The position numbers and the translations under genes were made by a program. Shown here piece by piece: positions 3,742 to 13,633 of a stretch of 64,000 nucleotides of DNA. Every line of letters begins with the position of its first letter. Position 1 is the stretch's first letter. The stretch covers positions 195,537 through 259,536 of the forward strand of contig CAVZQM010000001.1 of assembly GCA_963777495.1 (NCBI GenBank). The letters are read 5' to 3'. Source of the DNA: an uncultured Actinomycetes bacterium. Lineage in GTDB: Bacteria > Actinomycetota > UBA4738 > HRBIN12. The notes below the pieces were generated by a model, which made no database searches, was not told where the DNA came from, and was given only the letters and a program-made list of their open reading frames with translations.

Positions 3742-4194
3742 TCAGACGCCCGCCTCCAGGTTCGCCTTCAGCATCTTCATGCCTTTGTTCGTGGCCGGTT
3801 TGATGTAGGCGCTCAGGATGATCGGGAAGATCACGCCGCCGAACCCGTCGGGCTTGGGGAAGTCGATCGTCCGGTCGATCCGGGTCGCGTCACCGTGGGG
3901 CGTGAGGACGTACGTGTTGAGGTAGTCCTGACCCTTCTCCCGCCCTGTGAACTCGATCCGGCGAGGCTCATCGAACGCCGTCACCTCGACGTCGTTGCGA
4001 TGGTCCGCGTCCTTCGGCACCCAGCCGTACGACGTGAACGTGGTGCCGAGTCGGACGGGCCCGTCGACGCCTTCGACGCGATACGCCTTCGGCGACCATC
4101 GCGCATGCGTGGACACATCGGCGAGATACGCGAACACCTCGTCGGGCTTGCGGTTCACCAGCACGCTCAGCTGCGCCTTCGACCTGCCGCTCAT
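3742..4194 (-). CDS. SRPBCC family protein (polyketide cyclase/dehydrase-like)
   Basis: Start placed at internal ATG 4194 preceded by GGAGGGAGG RBS; 150-aa START/Bet v1-like fold protein; upstream 75 codons of the longer ORF look non-coding. Confidence 0.7.
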   Translation of the reverse strand: MSGRSKAQLSVLVNRKPDEVFAYLADVSTHARWSPKAYRVEGVDGPVRLGTTFTSYGWVPKDADHRNDVEVTAFDEPRRIEFTGREKGQDYLNTYVLTPHGDATRIDRTIDFPKPDGFGGVIFPIILSAYIKPATNKGMKMLKANLEAGV

Positions 4195-4280
4195 CGGTGC
4201 CTCCCTCCAGGGGTCCGACCGCCATGGTCGGCCCACCCCCACGACGAACGGGCGGTGGCGGTATCGACAGGGACGAGCGC

Positions 4281-5274
4281 CTACTCCGGTGGCTGCGACT
4301 CCACGATCTCGGTCGGCGCACTGTGTATCGCGGGGATGGTGCCGAGCTTGCCGGCCTGGTAGTCCTCGAAGGCCTGGCGGAGCTCGTCCTTCGTGTTCAT
4401 GACGAACGGCCCCATCCATGCGACGGGCTCGCGGATCGGCCGGCCACCGAGGAGCAGCACCTCGAGCGCGGGCGAGCGACTCTCCTGCACCTCGGCCGCG
4501 CGGACCGTGATCGTGTCACCGGGTCCGAACACGGCGAGCTGGCCGGTCGCGACGGCGATCCTCTCCACGCCCACCGTCCCCGCTCCAGCCAGCACGTAGG
4601 CCAGCGCGTTGAACGCCGGACTCCCATGGCACGTCCAGTGTCGCGCCGGGGGAGAGCGACGCGTGCACCATGGTCATCGGCGTGTACGTGTCGCCGGGAC
4701 CCGCCTGCCCGGCCAGGTTGCCGGCGATCACGCGGACCAGCGCCCCGGCGTCGGATGACGCCAGGAGGACGACCTCGTTCCCGCGGAGGTCCTGGTAACG
4801 CGGTGCCGCCCATTTCTCCGCCTTCGGAAGGTTGACCCAGAGCTGCAGTCCGTGGAAGAGCCCGCCGCTCACGACCAGATGCTCGGGCGGTTTCTCGATG
4901 TGCAGGATGCCGGCACCCGCCGTCATCCATTGCGTGTCGCCGTTCGTGATGACCCCGCCACCGCCGTTGGAGTCTTGGTGCTCGAAGATGCCGTCCATGA
5001 TGTACGTGACGGTCTCGAAGCCGCGGTGCGGGTGCCACGGCGTGCCCTTCGGCTCGCCCGGCGCGTACTCCACCTCGCCCATCTGATCCATGTGGATGAA
5101 CGGGTCGAGCTCGGACAGATCGACCCCTGCGAAGGCGCGGCGGACGGGGAATCCTTCACCTTCGAAACCGCCGGGGGCGGTGGTCACGGACCGGACGCGG
5201 CGGGGTGTCGCCGCTGGGTCGGTCGCCGGAAGGCGTCGCAAGGTGGTGACATCGTTGACGGTGATCGCTGGCAT
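4281..5274 (-). CDS. pirin family protein (frameshifted in this assembly)
   Basis: N-terminal 252-aa ORF ([11 protein letters not shown] cupin motif) and a 104-aa ORF in another frame carry the pirin N- and C-domains; frames switch near 4600-4630; strong RBS GAAGGAGGAAC before ATG 5274. Confidence 0.75.
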
Positions 5275-5322
5275 GTGTCGGTTCCTCCTTCTCGCTCCGC
5301 AGAACCGCCGAACCGGTTGCGC

Positions 5323-6315
5323 CTATTCCGCGCCCTGCGTCGCGAACACCTTCGCGAGTCCGGTCGCGAGCGTCTCCCGCGCGTCCTTCGCGGGTGTGTG
5401 ACCGGCGAGATCGAGCGCCATCAGCGCGGACCCGATCACCGGCGGGATCTCGAGGCGCTTGAGACGCGCGTCCGGCGCGACCGGGCGCACGGCCGCTTCC
5501 AGGGCATCGAGGAGGTCACCGCTCCCGCCGTTGAACAACTCCCGCGCCAACACCAGATCGAACGCCGTGTGCTCCATGCCCAAGGTCCGGACGATGTGCA
5601 CGGCCGTCTCCCCAAGCATCGCGCCCGCGCGGGCGAGCAGTCCGCGGGCGACCGCATCACCCTCCGCGGCGGCGTGCATCACCAGCGGGGAGAATCCCGT
5701 CACGTCGATCCGTTCTCGAGCCGTCCCATCCAGCAGGTCGACGACCGTCGCCGCAGCGGCCGCCCGGCACATCAGTTGTGTCAACGCGGTCTGGGGCCCG
5801 CGGCCCGTGAACGCGTCCGCCACCGCTCGGAGCGCGTCCTCGGAGACGTCGGTCTGGCTCCCGTAGTCTCCGAACTGCCGGCCGATCCCCAGGCTCCGAT
5901 ACTCGTCGCCCTCGCGGTTCCGACCGGCGACGACCGAGCCGGTGCCGGCGATGATGACGACGCCGAACGGCTGATCCGTGCCGGCCCGCAATGCCGCGAA
6001 CGAGTCGTTCACGATCCGGCATCGACCCTTCAACCCGATCGCCTCGGGGATCCCCGCCAGCCGGCGCTCGTCGACCGGGAAATCCACCCCCGCCAGCGCG
6101 AAGACGGATGCCTCGACGTCGTCCGTCGTCAGCTCCGCAGCGCTCAACGCCTCGGTGACGCACGATCGGAGCGCGCTCGCGGCCGCCGCGATGCCGTTCT
6201 GGTCCCAATCGGAGGAATCGTCGTTGGCGCCGAGCCCCAAGAGCGTGCCCGAGGCGTCGGTCAGGATGGCGTTGCTGTGGACCCCGTCACCCTCTACCCC
6301 AAGGACCAGCTCCAT
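5323..6315 (-). CDS. BadF/BadG/BcrA/BcrD-type ATPase (N-acetylglucosamine kinase-like sugar kinase fold)
   Basis: Intact 330-aa ORF; actin-like ATPase fold motifs (GVEGDG..., IIAGTGS); lies between pirin and the kinase/aminotransferase fusion on the same strand. Confidence 0.7.
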   Translation of the reverse strand: MELVLGVEGDGVHSNAILTDASGTLLGLGANDDSSDWDQNGIAAAASALRSCVTEALSAAELTTDDVEASVFALAGVDFPVDERRLAGIPEAIGLKGRCRIVNDSFAALRAGTDQPFGVVIIAGTGSVVAGRNREGDEYRSLGIGRQFGDYGSQTDVSEDALRAVADAFTGRGPQTALTQLMCRAAAAATVVDLLDGTARERIDVTGFSPLVMHAAAEGDAVARGLLARAGAMLGETAVHIVRTLGMEHTAFDLVLARELFNGGSGDLLDALEAAVRPVAPDARLKRLEIPPVIGSALMALDLAGHTPAKDARETLATGLAKVFATQGAE

Positions 6316-6343
6316 GCCTTGACCATACGACTCCTGGGGCGGG

Positions 6344-8737
6344 CTACCTCGGCGGCGTGGCGTCCGCGAGCACGCGATCGAGCGTGCTGAGCAGCACCTC
6401 TGCCTCCTGGCGCGTGACCACGAGCGGCGGCCGGACCTTCAGCACGTGTCCCTCGCGACCGGTCGTCCCGACCAGGACGCCGAGCTCCCGCATGGCGTTC
6501 AGCACCGCGCGTGCCTCGGCGACGGCGGGCTCGCGGGTGACGCGATCGCGCACGAGCTCGACGCCGATCAGGAGCCCCAGCGAGCGAACGTCGCCGATCA
6601 GATCATGCCGGCTCGCGAGCTCCTCGATCCCAGACCGGATCCACGCGCCCTGCGCCGCCGCGTTCGCTCTGACGCCCTCCTCCTCGATGACGTCCAGCAC
6701 GGCGAGAGCTGCCTCGCACGCCACGGGGTTGCCGCCGAACGTGCTGAACCACTCGGTCTCGCGAGCGAACCGGTCCACGATGTCCGCACGCGTGATCACG
6801 GCGGCGACCGGGTGGCCGTTGCCCATGGGCTTACCGAGCGTGACGATGTCGGGGATCACGCCATGAACGTCGAACCCCCATAGGTGCGATCCGGGTCGGC
6901 CGAACCCCGACTGGACCTCGTCGGCCACGAAGACGCCACCGGCGCCGCGCCAGCGCCGCACCGCATCCTGCAGGTACTCCGGCGGGGGTGCGAGGATGCC
7001 GTCGCTCGTGAATCCGGCGTCGACCACCATGGCGGCCGGACGGACACCCTTCGCGGCGAGCGCGGCGATCGCGCCGTCGACGTGCTCCGCGTAGTGCACG
7101 GCCCAGCCCGGCTCCTCGCGACGGTACCGGCCCCGGTATCCGTTCGGAGCGGGAACCGTCTCCACGTTCGGGGGAGCGGTCGCGTCCCGCCACTCTTCGG
7201 GCGACAGGTCGGCCACGACCGTGGTCACGCCGTGATACGCGTAGTCGGTTACGAGGCCGCCGGTCTCCCCCGTGACGGTCGTGGCCAGTCGCCACGCCAG
7301 ATCGTTCGCCTCGCTCCCGGAGTTCACGAGCATCACCGTGTCCAGCCCGTCGGGCATGGTGGCGGTCAGCCGCTCGGCAAGCTCTAGCGCCGAGTCGTGG
7401 AGGTACCGTGCGTTGGTGTTGAGCGTGGCCGCCTGCCGGGCGATCGCCTCGACCACGTGGGGATGCGCGTGACCCACGACGGGAACGTTGTTGTAGCAAT
7501 CGAGGTACGCGCGACCTTCGACGTCGTACAGCCACGCGCCGCTCCCGCGGACCAGGTGCAGCGGCCGATCGTACGACAGCGGCGAGATCGCCGAGCCGAG
7601 CAGGCGCGTGCGCCGTTCCACGAGTTCGTCGAACGAGCTGACGCTCCGGCGCACCGGGCGATCCGCGCGGCCGGCGGCGTGCATCGCCTCCCGGATCCGG
7701 CGCTGGTACGCCACGAGACCCATGTCCCGATAGGCGTCCAGCATCGCCCACACGCCGGCATCCCACCCGGTGATGTATTCGGCGTTCTCCGGGTAGCTCC
7801 GCACCCGCCAGGCCGAGATCACCGCCGTGGTGGCCCATCGCGTGAGCAGCAGGTCGGGCAGGAGCGCGACCTCGTCGTCCAGGAACGGCGTGACCGAGGC
7901 GTATCCGGCCGCGGTCGCCTCCAACGACTCGAAGTGATCGGGGCGCTCGCCCATCAACGGCTCGACCGTCGACACGAAGTCGCAGACCAGGGCGGAGTGC
8001 GCCATATCGCCGAAGTCGATGATGCCCGAAACGCGCTGCTCCGGATCGAGCAGGCAGTTGTCCGGTGTCAGGTCGTTGTGGATCACCTGGGCTCGGAGGT
8101 CGGCGAACACCGGATGCACGTGTTCCTCGAAGCGGTCGAGGACCTCCGCCACCACGGCGCGCCGCTCGGCGTCGGGGATGTGTCCGACCAGAGGACGGAG
8201 ATCCATCGCGTGCTTGATGTTCCACAGCAGCCGATGTCCGGCCGATGGGTGGAAGAAGCCGCGGAGCGCTCGTCCGAGCCGTGCCCCCGCGACACCGAAG
8301 GCGTGCAGCGTCTCGAGCCGAAGATCGACGGGTTCCATGGTCCGTCCCGGCAGCAACGTGACCATCCGGACGATGGAGGAGCGACCGTCGGGTCCGGTCA
8401 CGAGCGTCTGGAACTCGCCGTCGACGCTCGGCACCAGTCGCATCACCGGGAGCGTCGGGTCGGAGCGAGCCACGTGCAGCAACGCTCGCATCTGCATGTC
8501 GAGGACGCCCGGGTCGTCGGCGGGATTCGCGATCTTCAGCACGTACCCACGACCGTCGCCGGTCGTGACGGTCACGTTCTGGTCGCGCTCGCTGACGAGG
8601 GGGGTCGCGGTACCGGCGACGCCGAAGATCTCGGCGGCCGTGCGCTCAGCGTCGGCCGCCGAGAAGGCCGGAGGCGGGGCCTCGAGCGGGTCCGGCTCGC
8701 CGGCGACGCTCGTGATGTCCGCGGCGGCGTCCGTCAT
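6344..8737 (-). CDS. bifunctional APH-like phosphotransferase / class-III (PLP) aminotransferase-fold protein (kinase + putative phospho-lyase)
   Basis: Intact 797-aa ORF. N-terminal half has a protein-kinase-like fold with HNDLTPDN (Brenner HxDxxxxN) and IDFGD motifs. C-terminal half is a class-III aminotransferase with the PLP lysine in DIVTLGK and a DEVQSGFGR motif. Confidence 0.85.
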   Translation of the reverse strand: MTDAAADITSVAGEPDPLEAPPPAFSAADAERTAAEIFGVAGTATPLVSERDQNVTVTTGDGRGYVLKIANPADDPGVLDMQMRALLHVARSDPTLPVMRLVPSVDGEFQTLVTGPDGRSSIVRMVTLLPGRTMEPVDLRLETLHAFGVAGARLGRALRGFFHPSAGHRLLWNIKHAMDLRPLVGHIPDAERRAVVAEVLDRFEEHVHPVFADLRAQVIHNDLTPDNCLLDPEQRVSGIIDFGDMAHSALVCDFVSTVEPLMGERPDHFESLEATAAGYASVTPFLDDEVALLPDLLLTRWATTAVISAWRVRSYPENAEYITGWDAGVWAMLDAYRDMGLVAYQRRIREAMHAAGRADRPVRRSVSSFDELVERRTRLLGSAISPLSYDRPLHLVRGSGAWLYDVEGRAYLDCYNNVPVVGHAHPHVVEAIARQAATLNTNARYLHDSALELAERLTATMPDGLDTVMLVNSGSEANDLAWRLATTVTGETGGLVTDYAYHGVTTVVADLSPEEWRDATAPPNVETVPAPNGYRGRYRREEPGWAVHYAEHVDGAIAALAAKGVRPAAMVVDAGFTSDGILAPPPEYLQDAVRRWRGAGGVFVADEVQSGFGRPGSHLWGFDVHGVIPDIVTLGKPMGNGHPVAAVITRADIVDRFARETEWFSTFGGNPVACEAALAVLDVIEEEGVRANAAAQGAWIRSGIEELASRHDLIGDVRSLGLLIGVELVRDRVTREPAVAEARAVLNAMRELGVLVGTTGREGHVLKVRPPLVVTRQEAEVLLSTLDRVLADATPPR

Positions 8738-8792
8738 GAGGCATCACTCTAGACAACCGGGCGTCCGAGCCGGGAGCCGCGAGAGCGACGGG

Positions 8793-9737
8793 TCAGCCCG
8801 CGGCGGCGGCCGCGCGCTTCTCTTCGTACATCGTCGCGGTCGCATCCAGCATCGCGAGGTAGTTCATGATGCCCTCGCGTGCTTCCTTCGCTTCCTCCGT
8901 CAGATCCGTCAGCTGGTCGATCTTCCAGTGCTTGAACAACACGGGGAGGACGACCTGGTCGTGGTGGATGCGCAGGTCGTAGATGCCGGCCTTCGCCATC
9001 TGGATCGCCTTCGCCTTGAACTCGGGGATCTCGATGCCGGGCATCTGGAAGCCCACGACCTGCCGGTTGATCGCCAGCATCATGGCCGAGGGATCGATCT
9101 CGAGCGCGGCCTTCGCGAGCTCGCGGTAGAAGACGTAGTGGAGGTTCTCGTCGATCGCGATGCGCGCCGTGAGCTTCTCGATCAACGGGTCGTCCGTGTA
9201 TTGCCCGGTGTTGCGATGCGCGATCCGGGTCGCGAGCTCCTGGAGCGACGTATAGACCAGCCCGTCGAGGGGATCGGCGAAGAAGCCGCCCTGGCCGTCC
9301 GGGTAGTAGCCACGCGAGACGGTCTCCATCCGACCGCGCTCCAGTGCCACCGGGTCGAGGCCACGCGTCACGGTCAGGTAGTCCCGCAGCACGATCGCGT
9401 GGCGACCTTCTTCGGCCGTCCATCGGCGGACCCATTCGCCCCACACCCCGTCGCGACCGAACGTCTCCCAGAGCGCGAGGTGGTAGTAGGGGAGGTTGTC
9501 CTCGGTGAGGAGGTTGACCTCGAGCGAGACGCGAGAGATCTCACTCAGCTGACTGTCCGCCACCTCCCACGGTTCCTCGACGTAGTTCCGTCCCTTCTCG
9601 TACGGGACGTACTCGTGAGGGAACCACTCGGTGGCCTGGGACAGGTGCCGTTCGAGGCCCTTCTCCAGCGCAGGCTCGAGCTGCGTGAGCATGTCTGCAG
9701 GGGGTACGGCGGTGTCGGGTCGTCGTTGATCCAGCAT
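8793..9737 (-). CDS. desA: acyl-[ACP] desaturase (DesA1/DesA2-like di-iron stearoyl-ACP desaturase family)
   Basis: Di-iron ligand motifs (EENRH-like EEGRH, DENLH); start set at internal ATG 9737 with RBS GGAGGAA 4 nt upstream, matching the DesA1 N-terminus; the longer ORF has a TTG at 9824. Confidence 0.85.
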   Translation of the reverse strand: MLDQRRPDTAVPPADMLTQLEPALEKGLERHLSQATEWFPHEYVPYEKGRNYVEEPWEVADSQLSEISRVSLEVNLLTEDNLPYYHLALWETFGRDGVWGEWVRRWTAEEGRHAIVLRDYLTVTRGLDPVALERGRMETVSRGYYPDGQGGFFADPLDGLVYTSLQELATRIAHRNTGQYTDDPLIEKLTARIAIDENLHYVFYRELAKAALEIDPSAMMLAINRQVVGFQMPGIEIPEFKAKAIQMAKAGIYDLRIHHDQVVLPVLFKHWKIDQLTDLTEEAKEAREGIMNYLAMLDATATMYEEKRAAAAAG

Positions 9738-9859
9738 CGGTTCCTCCAGCCGGCTCTCGTTCGCCGTGGGTCGGGGCACTTCCGTGATCGCGACCGAGGG
9801 CTGGAGTCGCTCATCGCCGGACAACGTGCGGAGTGTCGCTCTCTAGCTTACGGCACGGC

Positions 9860-11584
9860 TCAGGCGATCACCGCGAAGGCGTCGATCGAAGTCTGGGTGC
9901 CGCGAGCGGCGGGTCGCGCTTGCCCCAGCACGACGATGCGCAGTTCGTGCGACCCGAGGTTCAGGCCGGCGATCGTCCGCGTCGCCGTCGCCGGCGCGCT
10001 CGCGTAGTTGTCCACGGTCTTGACCAGTGCTCCGTCGACGAAGATCTGCGCCCGGCCCTGGTGAGGACCCCGCATCGTGTGCCATACGACGCCCGTGCCG
10101 TAGAAGTCGAACGTCGCCGTCGTTCCGGCCAGGTCGCTGACGGCGACGTCACCACCGGACGCCGCCGCGTTCTTCGCTCGACCCCACGCGTGTCGCAGCT
10201 CCGGGTTCGACAGGATCGTTCCGCCGGCCTCGATCGCGTCGACCGCGACCTGCGTGTCCGGGGCGTTCTTGGACCCCTTCTGTCCCAGCACCCGGATCGT
10301 GATCGTGTGCTCGCCGGGCGCGAGTTGACGGAACGACCGAGGCACCCTGAACGTGGCCGACGGCGCGTACTGGTTGAACGTGCCGTGCGGACGGCCGTCG
10401 ATCCACACCGACGCCTTCCCCTGCGCAGGCCCCATCACCGTGTACCACGTGACGGTCTTGCCCTTGAAGTCGAACGAGGCGGTCGCTCCGGCGAGGTGGT
10501 CGACGGCGTAGGAGCGACCGAACGCGCTCGCCGACGCCACCGAGCGCCATGTGTAGTCGATCGCAGCGCTCGCCTGTTCCACCTCGGTCGGCGCCGCGAA
10601 CACGGCTTCGGTCGTCGCGGCGGCGTTCCCTCCGCGATCCACGATGGGGTTGATGGTTCCGGCCGGGTTCACGACCACCTGATAGCTCTGCCCGGGGATG
10701 AGCGCGTCGGTCGCTTCGAGCACCGTGACGATGACGTTCCCTGAGTTGCAGTTGACCTGTTGCCCCGCCTTGGAGGCGCACGTGATGGAGGCATCCACCG
10801 GGACGCCGGAGGACAACAGCGAGAGGTTCTCCGAAGACACCCTGCGCACGATCTCGCTGAACGAGACGGTGACCGGCCCGGTCACTCCGGTGGGTGTGGC
10901 GATCGTCGCCAGCGGCGCGACCGTATCGGGGTTGGGGATCAGGATCGGCGTCAGGTCCAACCCGTCGTACCAGTCCAGGTCGACGCAGCCCTGGATGCCC
11001 GGGACCGTGCCGCAGTTGCTGTGCTGCCAGATCGTCCAGCCATACCCCTGCCAGTCGTTCGCCGGGAGGATCGGCGCCGCGACCCCCCAGTGGGCGACCC
11101 ACAGCACCGTGTAGCCCGCGTCGGCGATCGCCGTGGTGTCGGCCATACGATCTTTCCAACCGTTGGGGCTGGTGTAGACCATCGGCTTGACCCCGGTTCG
11201 CTCCGTGACGCGGGCGAGCCACCCCAGCACCCAGTCGGTGAGCTCAGCGGGCGACAGGTCACCGGAGCGCTCCAGGTCGAGCACCGGCAGGATGTTGCCC
11301 GGCGCGAGCTGCGCGGTATCGACGTAGTGATCCGCCTCCGGGACGGGATCGAACGGATGGAGGTCGGGGCGGGCGAAGTGGTAGGCACCGAACGTGATGC
11401 CCGCAGCCATGGCCTCGGCGCGGTTCGTCGAGAAGCGCGGGTCCACGAACCCTGTGCCCTCCGTGGCCTTCGCGATCGCGAACCGGACGCCGGACCCGGC
11501 GACCTTCGTCCAGTCGATCTCGTCCTGATGATGGCTGACGTCGATCCCGGGGAGGCTGTCGGGAGGAGGAGCGAACGTCGTCAT
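9860..11584 (-). CDS. GH25 family muramidase (lysozyme) with two C-terminal ~100-aa tandem repeat domains
   Basis: GH25 signature GIDVSHHQ...DW...FAIAKATEG...GAYHFARP. Two homologous repeats (…TASFDFKGKTVTWYTVMGPAQGKASVWIDG… and …TATFDFYGTGVVWHTMRGPHQGRAQIFVDG…). The first ATG is at 11584, but the upstream in-frame 40 codons encode a Tat/Sec-like signal (LRRASRAITGALAALACIASLVSASAAAHA) with no canonical start. Confidence 0.8.
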   Translation of the reverse strand: MTTFAPPPDSLPGIDVSHHQDEIDWTKVAGSGVRFAIAKATEGTGFVDPRFSTNRAEAMAAGITFGAYHFARPDLHPFDPVPEADHYVDTAQLAPGNILPVLDLERSGDLSPAELTDWVLGWLARVTERTGVKPMVYTSPNGWKDRMADTTAIADAGYTVLWVAHWGVAAPILPANDWQGYGWTIWQHSNCGTVPGIQGCVDLDWYDGLDLTPILIPNPDTVAPLATIATPTGVTGPVTVSFSEIVRRVSSENLSLLSSGVPVDASITCASKAGQQVNCNSGNVIVTVLEATDALIPGQSYQVVVNPAGTINPIVDRGGNAAATTEAVFAAPTEVEQASAAIDYTWRSVASASAFGRSYAVDHLAGATASFDFKGKTVTWYTVMGPAQGKASVWIDGRPHGTFNQYAPSATFRVPRSFRQLAPGEHTITIRVLGQKGSKNAPDTQVAVDAIEAGGTILSNPELRHAWGRAKNAAASGGDVAVSDLAGTTATFDFYGTGVVWHTMRGPHQGRAQIFVDGALVKTVDNYASAPATATRTIAGLNLGSHELRIVVLGQARPAARGTQTSIDAFAVIA

Positions 11585-11700
11585 CGGCCGTGGATGCGCG
11601 GCCCGACGGGGCTGGGCGTGGGCAGCAGCCGACGCCGACACCAACGACGCGATGCATGCGAGCGCCGCGAGGGCGCCCGTGATCGCGCGGGACGCCCGTC

Positions 11701-12231
11701 TCAGTGCCGCGGCTTCAGTCCTGACGTCAGGGACTCGCAGAGGTCCGTCGACTGACCGAGGGTCGTCCTGGATGACACGAGGAAGACCCCGGACTTCACG
11801 TCGTACGTGCCTCGCATCAGCACCACGCCGGTCACCCATTGGAAGAACGACGTGCCGAGCGACGTATCGGTGCCCCAGATCGCTCCGCGGCCCACGAACA
11901 GGATCGTGCTGCTTCCGTCGCGATTCGGCGTGGACGTCAGCAACCAGTTCTCGTCGAGCAGCATGGCTCCGCCGGTCCCGCCCGTGTACTCGGTCGACGT
12001 CTCGGTACGGAGGGTCTGCAGCACCACCGAGCCTCGGCGGTCCGTCCAGGTGTTGAGGGTGCGCGGATCTCGCTGCGTGACCAGTGCCGTGAAGCCGCAC
12101 GCGTTCTCGACGGGCACACCGATGTGCGCGGGCACGGACTCGGTCGACCTGCCCGCGGCGAGCGCAGGCTGGGTCCCGACGAACAGGACGCCCGAGAGGG
12201 TCAGCGCGGCGAGCACGAGGGATCTCCGCAT
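11701..12231 (-). CDS. secreted hypothetical protein
   Basis: 176-aa ORF with N-terminal signal peptide (MRRSLVLAALTLSGVLFVGTQPALA); overlaps the upstream extension of the GH25 ORF in another frame. Confidence 0.5.
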   Translation of the reverse strand: MRRSLVLAALTLSGVLFVGTQPALAAGRSTESVPAHIGVPVENACGFTALVTQRDPRTLNTWTDRRGSVVLQTLRTETSTEYTGGTGGAMLLDENWLLTSTPNRDGSSTILFVGRGAIWGTDTSLGTSFFQWVTGVVLMRGTYDVKSGVFLVSSRTTLGQSTDLCESLTSGLKPRH

Positions 12232-12271
12232 CCGGATAGGGTCTCACGACGGTCAACGAACGCCATATACG

Positions 12272-13633
12272 ATGCTGGCGCCGATGGACGCGCACCGCTC
12301 CCGCATGCCTCGCCCTCGTGCATGGGTCGTTCCCCGGACGCTGCGTCGCTTCCTAGAGCCGTCCGTCGAGATGCGGCCGATCTCGCTGCGGTTCGTGGAT
12401 CCCGCGCTCGAGGAGACGTTCCAGGAGTCGTATTTCCGCGAGAGCCTCCCGTACGTCCGGCTGGCCCACATCCTGGGTATCGGACTCTGGGCGGTGTTCG
12501 GGTTCCTGGCGGATATCGTGATCGTCGGGGATCAAGAGACCGACCTGCTGATCCGGTACGCGATCGCCGTGCCGCTGTTGATCCTCAGCCTCGCGGTGAC
12601 GTACGCACCATCGTTCGGGCGGTTCTGGCGCTGGTGGATGTGCTTCATCTTGCTGGCCAACGCCGGGCTCTGGTCCACGCATCGGGCGTTGGTCCCTTCC
12701 GCGCCTGCCGACTGGGCGTACGCCGGACTCATGGTCGTCCTGATGTTCTGCTACGTCCTCAGCCGCCTGCCTTTCGCGTACTCGTCGATCCTGGGGGTCG
12801 TGATGATCGCGTATCACAACGTGGTCAGCTACGGGATCTTGCACGACAGCGTTCGCGAGCTCTGGCTCGCGGATTCGTTCCTGATCGGCATCGCGGTGAT
12901 CGGCATGGCGGCGGCGTACGGCCTGGACCGGACGACCCGCCTGGTGTTCCTGCGCGAGGGACAGCTGGACCGCGCGCGCCGGCGAGCGGACGAGCTCCTG
13001 CGCAACACGCTGCCCGGATCGGTCGTCGACCGGCTCCAGGCGCGGGATCGGATGCCGGAGGCGGCGCAGATCGCCGATCGCCTGGAGAGCGTGACGGTGC
13101 TCTTCGCGGATCTCGTCCGGTTCACGGAGCACGCGTCACTGGTCGCTCCCCACGAGCTGGTCGTCGCGCTCGACGACGTGTTCACGCGTTTCGACGAGCT
13201 GGCGGACCGCGTCGGGATGGAGAAGATCAAGACGGTCGGTGACGCGTACATGGCCGTCGCCGGCGCGCCGGACCCGCAACCCGACCACGCCGCCGCCGCC
13301 GCCGAGATGGCCCTGGAGATCATCGACTGCATGGCCGGCGCACGTTGGCCGACCGGAGAACCGATGGACGTGCGGGTTGGCGTGGCGTCGGGCCCCGTCG
13401 TGGCGGGTGTGATCGGTCGGAGGAAGTTCGCCTACGACCTGTGGGGTGACACGGTGAACGTGGCGAGCCGTCTGGAGTCGCACGGAGACCCGGGCCAGAT
13501 CCTCGTGTCCGGCTCGACTCACCTGCTGCTCGCGGGCCGGTACGTGTTCAGCGAGCCGCGCATCGTGCAGCTGAAGGGCAAAGGACCGACGCAGGCGTGG
13601 TTCCTGGTGGGTCGGGCGGACGGAGCCGCCTAG
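12272..13633 (+). CDS. membrane-anchored class III adenylate/guanylate cyclase
   Basis: About six predicted N-terminal TM helices followed by a CHD cyclase domain (FADLVRFT..., KTVGDAYM, WGDTVNVASRLES); ATG 12272 is the first in-frame start after the upstream genes. Confidence 0.85.
   Translation: MLAPMDAHRSRMPRPRAWVVPRTLRRFLEPSVEMRPISLRFVDPALEETFQESYFRESLPYVRLAHILGIGLWAVFGFLADIVIVGDQETDLLIRYAIAVPLLILSLAVTYAPSFGRFWRWWMCFILLANAGLWSTHRALVPSAPADWAYAGLMVVLMFCYVLSRLPFAYSSILGVVMIAYHNVVSYGILHDSVRELWLADSFLIGIAVIGMAAAYGLDRTTRLVFLREGQLDRARRRADELLRNTLPGSVVDRLQARDRMPEAAQIADRLESVTVLFADLVRFTEHASLVAPHELVVALDDVFTRFDELADRVGMEKIKTVGDAYMAVAGAPDPQPDHAAAAAEMALEIIDCMAGARWPTGEPMDVRVGVASGPVVAGVIGRRKFAYDLWGDTVNVASRLESHGDPGQILVSGSTHLLLAGRYVFSEPRIVQLKGKGPTQAWFLVGRADGAA

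Follow-up and report, generated by a model that had tools for sequence, protein, structure and literature searches.

The 64,000-nucleotide window analyzed here (positions 195,537 to 259,536 of contig CAVZQM010000001.1, from an uncultured Actinomycetes bacterium) carries on its minus strand, at positions 6344–8737, a gene that joins a predicted small-molecule kinase to a predicted pyridoxal 5'-phosphate (PLP)-dependent phospho-lyase in one polypeptide, hereafter the fusion protein. The open reading frame (ORF) runs uninterrupted from its ATG (8737–8735) to a TAG stop codon (6346–6344), encodes 797 amino acids (aa), and has G+C contents of 0.74, 0.49, and 0.89 at the three codon positions, as in real genes of a genome of ~70% G+C. 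The domain-wise profile search proposed in an earlier note on this DNA placed the Pfam family APH (PF01636) in the N-terminal half (aa 45–270; E = 1.6e-23, 84.1 bits versus a cut-off of 23.2) and Aminotran_3 (PF00202) in the C-terminal half (aa 392–790; E = 6.4e-73). A public collection includes an identical protein (P0001), and a lookup of recorded contigs encoding the fusion protein itself returned no match. Because at least 60 full-length homologues from independent assemblies display the same architecture, the fusion is not an assembly artifact, and the note's description of a single intact kinase and PLP-enzyme ORF stands.

Three segments can be identified in the protein. The APH-fold, hydroxylysine-kinase-like domain (~aa 22–356, positions 7670–8674, minus strand like all features of the gene) is delimited by the Pfam match, by alignment to hydroxylysine kinase, and by a confident AlphaFold2 model; it is followed by an inter-domain linker (~aa 357–368, 7634–7669) and by the class-III-fold PLP domain (aa 369–797, 6347–7633). 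The model has a mean predicted local distance difference test score (pLDDT) of 87; both domains are confidently predicted, whereas pLDDT falls below 50 in the stretch between them (aa 358–367). The linker of about 12 residues is thus short and disordered, and it is poorly conserved among fused homologues. No third domain is present in the model, and no Pfam match to Peptidase_M23-like was found in the protein. Since the predicted template modeling (TM) score is only 0.57, the relative orientation of the kinase and lyase domains is undefined, and we make no claim of substrate channeling. The motifs quoted in the earlier note were located at aa 220–227 (HNDLTPDN), 240–244 (IDFGD), and 630–636 (DIVTLGK).

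To place the PLP domain, we built a neighbor-joining tree from the C-terminal halves of 61 fused homologues, a three-domain protein, a split lyase, and two solved phospho-lyases, human ETNPPL (AGXT2L1; PDB code 6TOR) and A1RDF1 of Arthrobacter aurescens TC1 (5G4I/5G4J), with an outgroup of five sequences (a caprolactam racemase and four standalone Aminotran_3 genes that neighbor homologues). The PLP half, all of the fusions, 6TOR, and 5G4I form one clade with a bootstrap value of 100/100 (30-taxon replicate set), and the standalone Aminotran_3 neighbors fall outside it at 25–30% identity. By sequence, the PLP half is therefore assigned to the phospho-lyase clade and not to the transaminases, in line with the earlier proposal that the C-terminal half is phospho-lyase-like; judged in this way, the fusion protein shares its clade with the only two phospho-lyases characterized both structurally and biochemically. 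Nineteen clade-specific conserved residues are common to the clade and at least one of 6TOR and 5G4I. Those conserved in at least 95% of the clade, present in both structures, and found in none of the five outgroup sequences include Asn416-Asn417-Val418, Arg444, Gln609, Trp620, Pro637, Asn640, Phe664, and Lys767. The Asn416-Asn417-Val418 signature (7484–7492) is present in 100% of the clade, both structures included. Lys636, the predicted Schiff-base lysine (TLGKPMGNGHP, 6830–6832), lies in a motif that aligns in 6TOR and 5G4I, as does Asp606, which by class-III analogy would bind the PLP pyridine nitrogen; both are invariant across the clade, and Asp606 opens the invariant segment D606-E-V-Q609 (6911–6922), whose Gln609 is specific to the clade.

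Searches of solved structures and curated profiles gave the same assignment. The best matches of the PLP half, both end to end and both at 42% identity, are 6TOR (E = 1e-108, 368 bits) and 5G4I (E = 2e-104, 354 bits), and the motifs GKPMGNGHP, NNV, and NTNxRYL are common to the human enzyme and the fusion protein. The remaining solved class-III enzymes, among them caprolactam racemases, dialkylglycine decarboxylase, and isoleucine epimerase, score at most 209 bits (next E = 1e-60), and solved γ-aminobutyrate (GABA) transaminases reach about 155–165 bits. In a Foldseek comparison, the AlphaFold2 model superimposed on these two phospho-lyases with target-normalized TM scores of 0.93–0.94 (0.93 for 6TOR and 0.94 for A1RDF1) and a root-mean-square deviation of 1.8–2.3 Å, occupying ranks 1–4 ahead of every transaminase. 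Annotated gabT, rocD, and DABA-AT genes are 28–33% identical to the PLP half, versus 41–51% for genes of the kinase-linked type. Clustering with GABA transaminases, which the earlier note had named as the outcome that would overturn its reading, was not seen: the NCBIfam GABA transaminase models give 205–211 bits against cut-offs of 506–676.

These comparisons bear on the possibility that the C-terminal half is a true aminotransferase whose substrate is the amine phosphorylated by the kinase, as might occur in a biosynthetic pathway without elimination. Such a function would fit the Aminotran_3 fold with all of its PLP-binding residues in place, and the NCBI annotation pipeline (PGAP) does label relatives as “aspartate aminotransferase family protein.” However, the domain falls below every transaminase equivalog cut-off (ornithine aminotransferase, 170 versus 378 bits; ArgD, 203 versus 410; BioA, 169 versus 405, besides the GABA models), it groups at 100/100 with two characterized lyases and has clade-specific residues in common with them, and the standalone Aminotran_3 genes beside its homologues lie outside that clade at 25–30% identity. 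We consider a transaminase improbable.

The N-terminal half aligns end to end with a primate hydroxylysine kinase (Papio, P0125; 348 aa, 28% identity, E = 1e-42), which bears out the comparison, made in the earlier note, to a pair that exists as separate proteins in animals. A human hydroxylysine kinase sequence used as a query is 100% identical to a public cluster and 94–95% identical to primate proteins named “hydroxylysine kinase.” The catalytic machinery of the kinase is intact. Lys68 (YVLKI, 8534–8536), which corresponds to the N-lobe lysine that binds ATP in the APH and protein-kinase folds, is invariant, as are His220, Asp222, and Asn227 of the catalytic loop H220-N-D222-L-T-P-D-N227 (HxDxxxxN, 8057–8080) and Asp241, Gly243, and Asp244 of the predicted Mg-binding, DFG-like motif D241-F-G-D244 (8006–8017), in sets of 45 and 61 fused homologues of 42–83% identity. 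The catalytic aspartate, whose loss would have spoken against the proposal, is thus present as Asp222. The Pfam APH family also includes resistance enzymes, and the JGI annotation of relatives reads “Ser/Thr protein kinase RdoA,” so one might imagine that this domain has no functional tie to the PLP domain and acts instead on antibiotics (aminoglycosides or macrolides) or as a protein kinase. Yet APH(2'') resistance enzymes match the N-terminal half at the catalytic loop only (about 21–24 bits), in contrast to the end-to-end match to hydroxylysine kinase, and the recurrent linkage to the lyase in three genetic arrangements (see below) argues for a shared pathway; we regard an unrelated kinase as very improbable.

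Given the hydroxylysine kinase alignment and the phospho-lyase clade, both halves are homologous to the animal pair formed by HYKK (AGPHD1) and a phospho-lyase, PHYKPL (AGXT2L2) or ETNPPL: both domain families match, and the same phosphorylate-then-eliminate logic would apply, but the animal enzymes are separate polypeptides. The substrate of animal ETNPPL is supplied by an enzyme of the choline/ethanolamine kinase family, not by an APH-type kinase. The Arthrobacter enzyme is actinobacterial and lies in the same clade, but its solved chain of 446 residues matches the PLP half only and has no kinase domain; Cuetos and colleagues reportedly found this phospholyase, in 2016, to be active on O-phosphoethanolamine. 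The top NCBIfam matches of the fusion protein are PRK06148 (776 bits versus a cut-off of 1128) and PRK06149 (613 versus 973), whose cut-offs are both missed. Proteins of these families are about 1000 residues long and consist of APH, Peptidase_M23-like, and Aminotran_3 domains, as in a Microvirga homologue (L069); both terminal domains are homologous to those of the fusion protein, which skips the ~215 profile positions that correspond to the Peptidase_M23-like domain in Microvirga. The C-terminal half of the Microvirga protein is 50% identical to our PLP half.

Homologues of the fusion protein are widespread. At least 120 protein clusters that combine these Pfam domains were recovered at 55–100% identity; they are about 600–850 residues long (most 775–820) and come mostly from metagenome-assembled genomes of Actinomycetota, with others from Dormibacterota and Verrucomicrobia. 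A species-level genome collection contains 209 relatives, which span Actinomycetes, Chloroflexia, Acidobacteriota, Rhodobacterales, Woeseiaceae, Desulfobacterales, and other groups. In the plasmid database PLSDB, 648 large replicons match, and in 258 of them a single region accounts for at least 80% of the query. Haloarchaeal megaplasmids in PLSDB carry fused genes at about 50% identity, and adjacent genes annotated as “phosphotransferase” and “aminotransferase class III-fold” occur in Azospirillum, Burkholderia, Klebsiella, Sinorhizobium, Rahnella, and Pseudomonas. The reverse order, lyase then kinase, is found in Vibrio and in a metagenome-assembled genome of Pseudomonadales. The split proteobacterial pairs (Azospirillum, Burkholderia, Klebsiella, Sinorhizobium, Rahnella, and Vibrio) are adjacent genes whose products are 38–48% identical to the fusion protein over 88–98% of the query. 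The kinase and the lyase are therefore linked in three independent arrangements, namely as a two-domain fusion, as a three-domain protein with an M23-like insert (Microvirga), and as adjacent genes in either order, which argues that they catalyze consecutive steps.

This linkage is ancient, recurrent, and already routinely annotated. The novelty implied for the fusion in the earlier note does not hold, as hundreds of genomes of bacteria and haloarchaea contain the pairing in fused, three-domain, or split form. Veiga-da-Cunha and colleagues are said to have recognized in 2012 that bacterial AGXT2L homologues occur in bi- or trifunctional proteins together with an APH-type kinase and to have taken this as a clue to the animal enzymes. 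Our text search of the literature found no paper on a fused bacterial enzyme. With respect to archaea, fused homologues at 45–51% identity lie on haloarchaeal megaplasmids, including a plasmid of Natribaculum luteum (L093) and three further replicons (H2–H4). The haloarchaeal homologues are about as close to the fusion protein as many bacterial ones, which suggests gene transfer between domains. In addition, a 157-kb contig labeled Candidatus Micrarchaeia archaeon (DPANN; L013) encodes a fused homologue of 59% identity; a DPANN archaeon is a surprising host for this gene, and the assignment may represent a binning error.

The domain identities, the intact catalytic residues, and the membership in the phospho-lyase clade are direct observations on the fusion protein, and we infer its chemistry from the characterized relatives. 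We propose that it is a two-step catabolic kinase/phospho-lyase for a small amino alcohol, a reading to which we assign a probability of roughly 0.75. The N-terminal kinase would use ATP to phosphorylate the hydroxyl group vicinal to the amine; the PLP domain would then bind the resulting O-phospho-amine as an external aldimine and promote 1,2-elimination of phosphate, with release of ammonia and an aldehyde or ketone. The net reaction would convert amino alcohol and ATP to a carbonyl compound, NH4+, inorganic phosphate, and ADP. The two separate folds would be held on a flexible linker, and as dimerization is obligatory in class-III enzymes, the likely assembly is a lyase dimer that carries two kinase domains. 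Several points weigh against this proposal. The PLP half is just 42% identical to the characterized lyases, the kinase is just 28% identical to hydroxylysine kinase and matches its best solved structure weakly, and to our knowledge neither this protein nor any other fused bacterial enzyme has been assayed. About 18 kb of annotated ORFs around the gene contain no transporter, aldehyde dehydrogenase, or regulator that would support a catabolic role. Finally, the surroundings of homologues differ between lineages, so more than one substrate may well be used within the family.

As to the substrate, the low identities of both domains to characterized enzymes mean that it cannot be transferred from them. 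Biochemical work of the 1970s described kinase and phospho-lyase activities toward amino alcohols in Erwinia and Pseudomonas. Short amino alcohols are thus a sensible first guess, and we tentatively favor a compound of this class (ethanolamine or, for instance, 1-amino-2-propanol) at slightly under even odds. Some different hydroxy-amine is a serious possibility as well. Relative similarity to ETNPPL and PHYKPL was dropped as a guide to the substrate, since the animal paralogues are assumed to have duplicated after their split from the bacterial lineage, in which case the comparison would probably have little power to discriminate.

A 5-hydroxylysine-like amino acid is an unlikely substrate in our view, despite several observations that point toward it. 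The fusion protein would then be a 5-hydroxylysine kinase/5-phosphohydroxylysine phospho-lyase, a bacterial counterpart of HYKK plus PHYKPL that yields 2-aminoadipate semialdehyde. The full-length match of its N-terminal half to hydroxylysine kinase (E = 1e-42) is far above that to the best solved structure (36 bits), the split pair of Klebsiella lies beside an ATP-binding cassette (ABC) transporter of the Lys/Arg/Orn type, and the three-domain gene of Microvirga adjoins a gene for AcnX, whose family includes hydroxyproline dehydratases. However, identity to hydroxylysine kinase is just 28%, no basic-amino-acid transporter or lysine-catabolic gene was found among the annotated ORFs near the fusion, and the fusion occurs in soil actinobacteria, Chloroflexia, Acidobacteriota, and haloarchaea, whereas 5-hydroxylysine is mainly a constituent of collagen. 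Moreover, 5G4I, the only bacterial member with a solved structure, is reportedly active on phosphoethanolamine.

The best solved structure for the N-terminal half is 6EF6, an APH-fold kinase that matches only weakly (36 bits, E = 5e-08). We take it to be the (S)-1-amino-2-propanol kinase of the RMM microcompartment of M. smegmatis, which would feed a class-III phospho-lyase. The RMM kinase and lyase are separate proteins, whereas ours are fused, and the annotated ORFs of the fusion locus (~18 kb) include no microcompartment shell genes, no bacterial microcompartment (BMC) domains, and no aldehyde dehydrogenase. With a weak 6EF6 match and without shell and aldehyde dehydrogenase genes in this region, the locus does not qualify as an aminoacetone/aminopropanol pathway of the RMM type. 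The M. smegmatis RMM kinase is cited in PMC8007038 as Mallette and Kimber (2018).

The genes that surround homologues elsewhere offer some functional context. In cultured Proteobacteria, transporters and GntR or MocR regulators accompany the kinase-lyase genes, an association consistent with uptake and catabolism: an SSF symporter lies near the pair in Vibrio, the Lys/Arg/Orn-type ABC system in Klebsiella, and ABC systems plus a short-chain dehydrogenase/reductase (SDR) gene in Rahnella and Sinorhizobium, the SDR gene being directly beside the pair in Rahnella. The split pairs thus differ from the fusion in being two genes, usually accompanied by transporters, GntR/MocR regulators, and often an SDR gene, none of which lies near the fusion. 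All-against-all clustering of six-frame ORFs around 83 loci, which is noisy due to shadow ORFs in high-G+C DNA, yielded only lineage-restricted blocks and a loose recurrence of SDR genes at variable distance in 15 loci, which we do not regard as established. A second, non-lyase Aminotran_3 gene recurs loosely (L080, L084, and L087). In Microvirga arabica (L069), the three-domain gene (7926–11027 of that locus) lies about 1 kb downstream of the AcnX gene (5159–6922). The AcnX family includes cis-3-hydroxy-L-proline dehydratases, and this neighbor might point to a connection with hydroxy-amino acids of the collagen type.

Within the window, the fusion gene is followed on the same strand by an ORF of the BadF/BadG ATPase family (5323–6315), which was reported in the earlier note and is intact, and by a pirin region (4281–5274). 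The three are co-directional and lie 28 and 48 nt apart; as the minus strand also lacks a terminator-like site, co-transcription is possible. The note had treated the pirin as a single gene, but it is split into two ORFs in different frames, one with the N-terminal cupin (4516–5274) and one with the Pirin_C cupin (4281–4595), by a 1-nt insertion near position 4621 relative to three close relatives (L001, L003, and L022) in which the pirin ORF remains intact at about 330 aa. Either pseudogene formation or an assembly error could account for the frameshift. The BadF-like protein has a MurNAc/GlcNAc (N-acetylmuramic acid/N-acetylglucosamine) kinase (8ZO3, 2e-20) as its best solved homologue, and its phosphate-1 motif reads GVEGDGVHS in place of the usual GIDGGGSKT; since EGDGxH is kept in five close relatives, it is a lineage trait and not a sign of decay.

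Close relatives share an array of genes for a GH25 protein, an acyl-ACP desaturase, the fusion protein, (in most cases) the BadF-like protein, pirin, and an SRPBCC protein. This array is present in just eight of loci L001–L079, all at 76% identity or above. In three of those eight, the BadF-like gene is absent (L001 and L006) or broken (L005) and the fusion is intact; in L005 it is broken across all three frames (10409–11476 of that locus) by several frameshifts, with flanking genes intact, which could reflect indel errors of long reads or real gene decay. Among the loci taken from the genome collection, every one of 69% identity or below lacks all of the array neighbors. Eight loci for which genes were called and Pfam domains labeled (L080–L087) have different surroundings with no BadF or pirin beside the fusion, and six annotated replicon regions contain neither gene beside the kinase-lyase genes. 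We conclude that the BadF-like ATPase and the pirin are, from this pattern of conservation, most likely unrelated passengers of a lineage-specific gene array, and the operon put forward in the earlier note is not supported as a functional context for the fusion.

This distribution also renders quite improbable a model in which the fusion, BadF-like, and pirin genes, possibly with GH25, constitute an operon for an amino-sugar or cell-wall-derived hydroxy-amine. The gene order is kept in five close relatives, and the co-directional genes, their 28- and 48-nt gaps, the lack of a minus-strand terminator-like site, and the kinship of the BadF-like protein to a MurNAc/GlcNAc kinase would all be accommodated by such a model. 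It does not account for synteny that is confined to relatives at or above 76% identity, for the loss or fragmentation of BadF beside an intact fusion, or for the lack of both partners beside the fusion at 69% identity or below and in the annotated replicon regions. Furthermore, the phosphate-1 motif is non-canonical, the pirin at this locus is frameshifted, and an unrelated acyl-ACP desaturase gene intervenes between GH25 and the fusion. A related idea, that the substrate lies outside ethanolamine, 1-amino-2-propanol, and 5-hydroxylysine and that the BadF-like protein (with its EGDGxH motif) and pirin perform accessory steps of a new small pathway, is likewise doubtful, though less remote.

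The other annotated genes within ~18 kb of the fusion encode a Zn peptidase, a cupin, a PNPOx-like protein, an FAD monooxygenase, the SRPBCC protein, the desaturase, the GH25 protein, an adenylate cyclase, a PHP protein, a luciferase-like oxidoreductase, and an aldo-keto reductase, in addition to the pirin and BadF-like genes. In the 55-nt gap upstream of the fusion (8738–8792, minus strand), a TTGTCT...TAGAGT element ends 8 nt before the ATG, and no Shine-Dalgarno sequence is present; judging from the letters, the gap is compatible with a promoter of its own and a leaderless or near-leaderless transcript. A sigma-70 promoter scan gave no match, as expected for a high-G+C actinobacterium, and Rfam likewise revealed neither a riboswitch nor a leader upstream of the fusion. 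Within the acyl-ACP desaturase gene (8793–9824, minus strand), the plus strand at 9343–9410 matches the Rfam small RNA family ASdes (RF01781; 48 bits versus a gathering score of 40) in antisense orientation, as does the mycobacterial ASdes with respect to desA1; the match may be due simply to conservation of the coding sequence of the desaturase. An SRPBCC/polyketide-cyclase-like ORF (3742–4419, minus strand) overlaps the C-terminal part of the pirin by about 140 nt; its real start is probably downstream, as its Pfam match begins at aa 81 and similarity to relatives extends over only about 153 aa. The GH25 muramidase ORF (9860–12295, minus strand; 811 aa with a CE2_N-like C terminus) and the adenylate/guanylate-type cyclase ORF (11807–13633, plus strand; 608 aa) overlap by about 490 nt at the start of the cyclase ORF, and one of the two start codons is therefore probably over-extended.

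Taken together, the fusion is a real but ordinary case of a known and widespread kinase-lyase pairing. Its neighborhood is uninformative, and this copy hence gives no special handle on the substrate question. As a clean Rosetta-stone fusion it links an APH-type kinase to a PLP phospho-lyase, although it carries little weight alone; the 2012 study reportedly used the kinase-lyase linkage to assign the functions of human HYKK, PHYKPL, and ETNPPL. Bacterial and archaeal versions are labeled “aminotransferase class III-fold enzyme” and “phosphotransferase” by automatic annotation, and a biochemical assignment would correct many such entries. Assignment of the substrate would also clarify an ATP-costly route by which soil microbes would scavenge nitrogen and carbon from amino alcohols.

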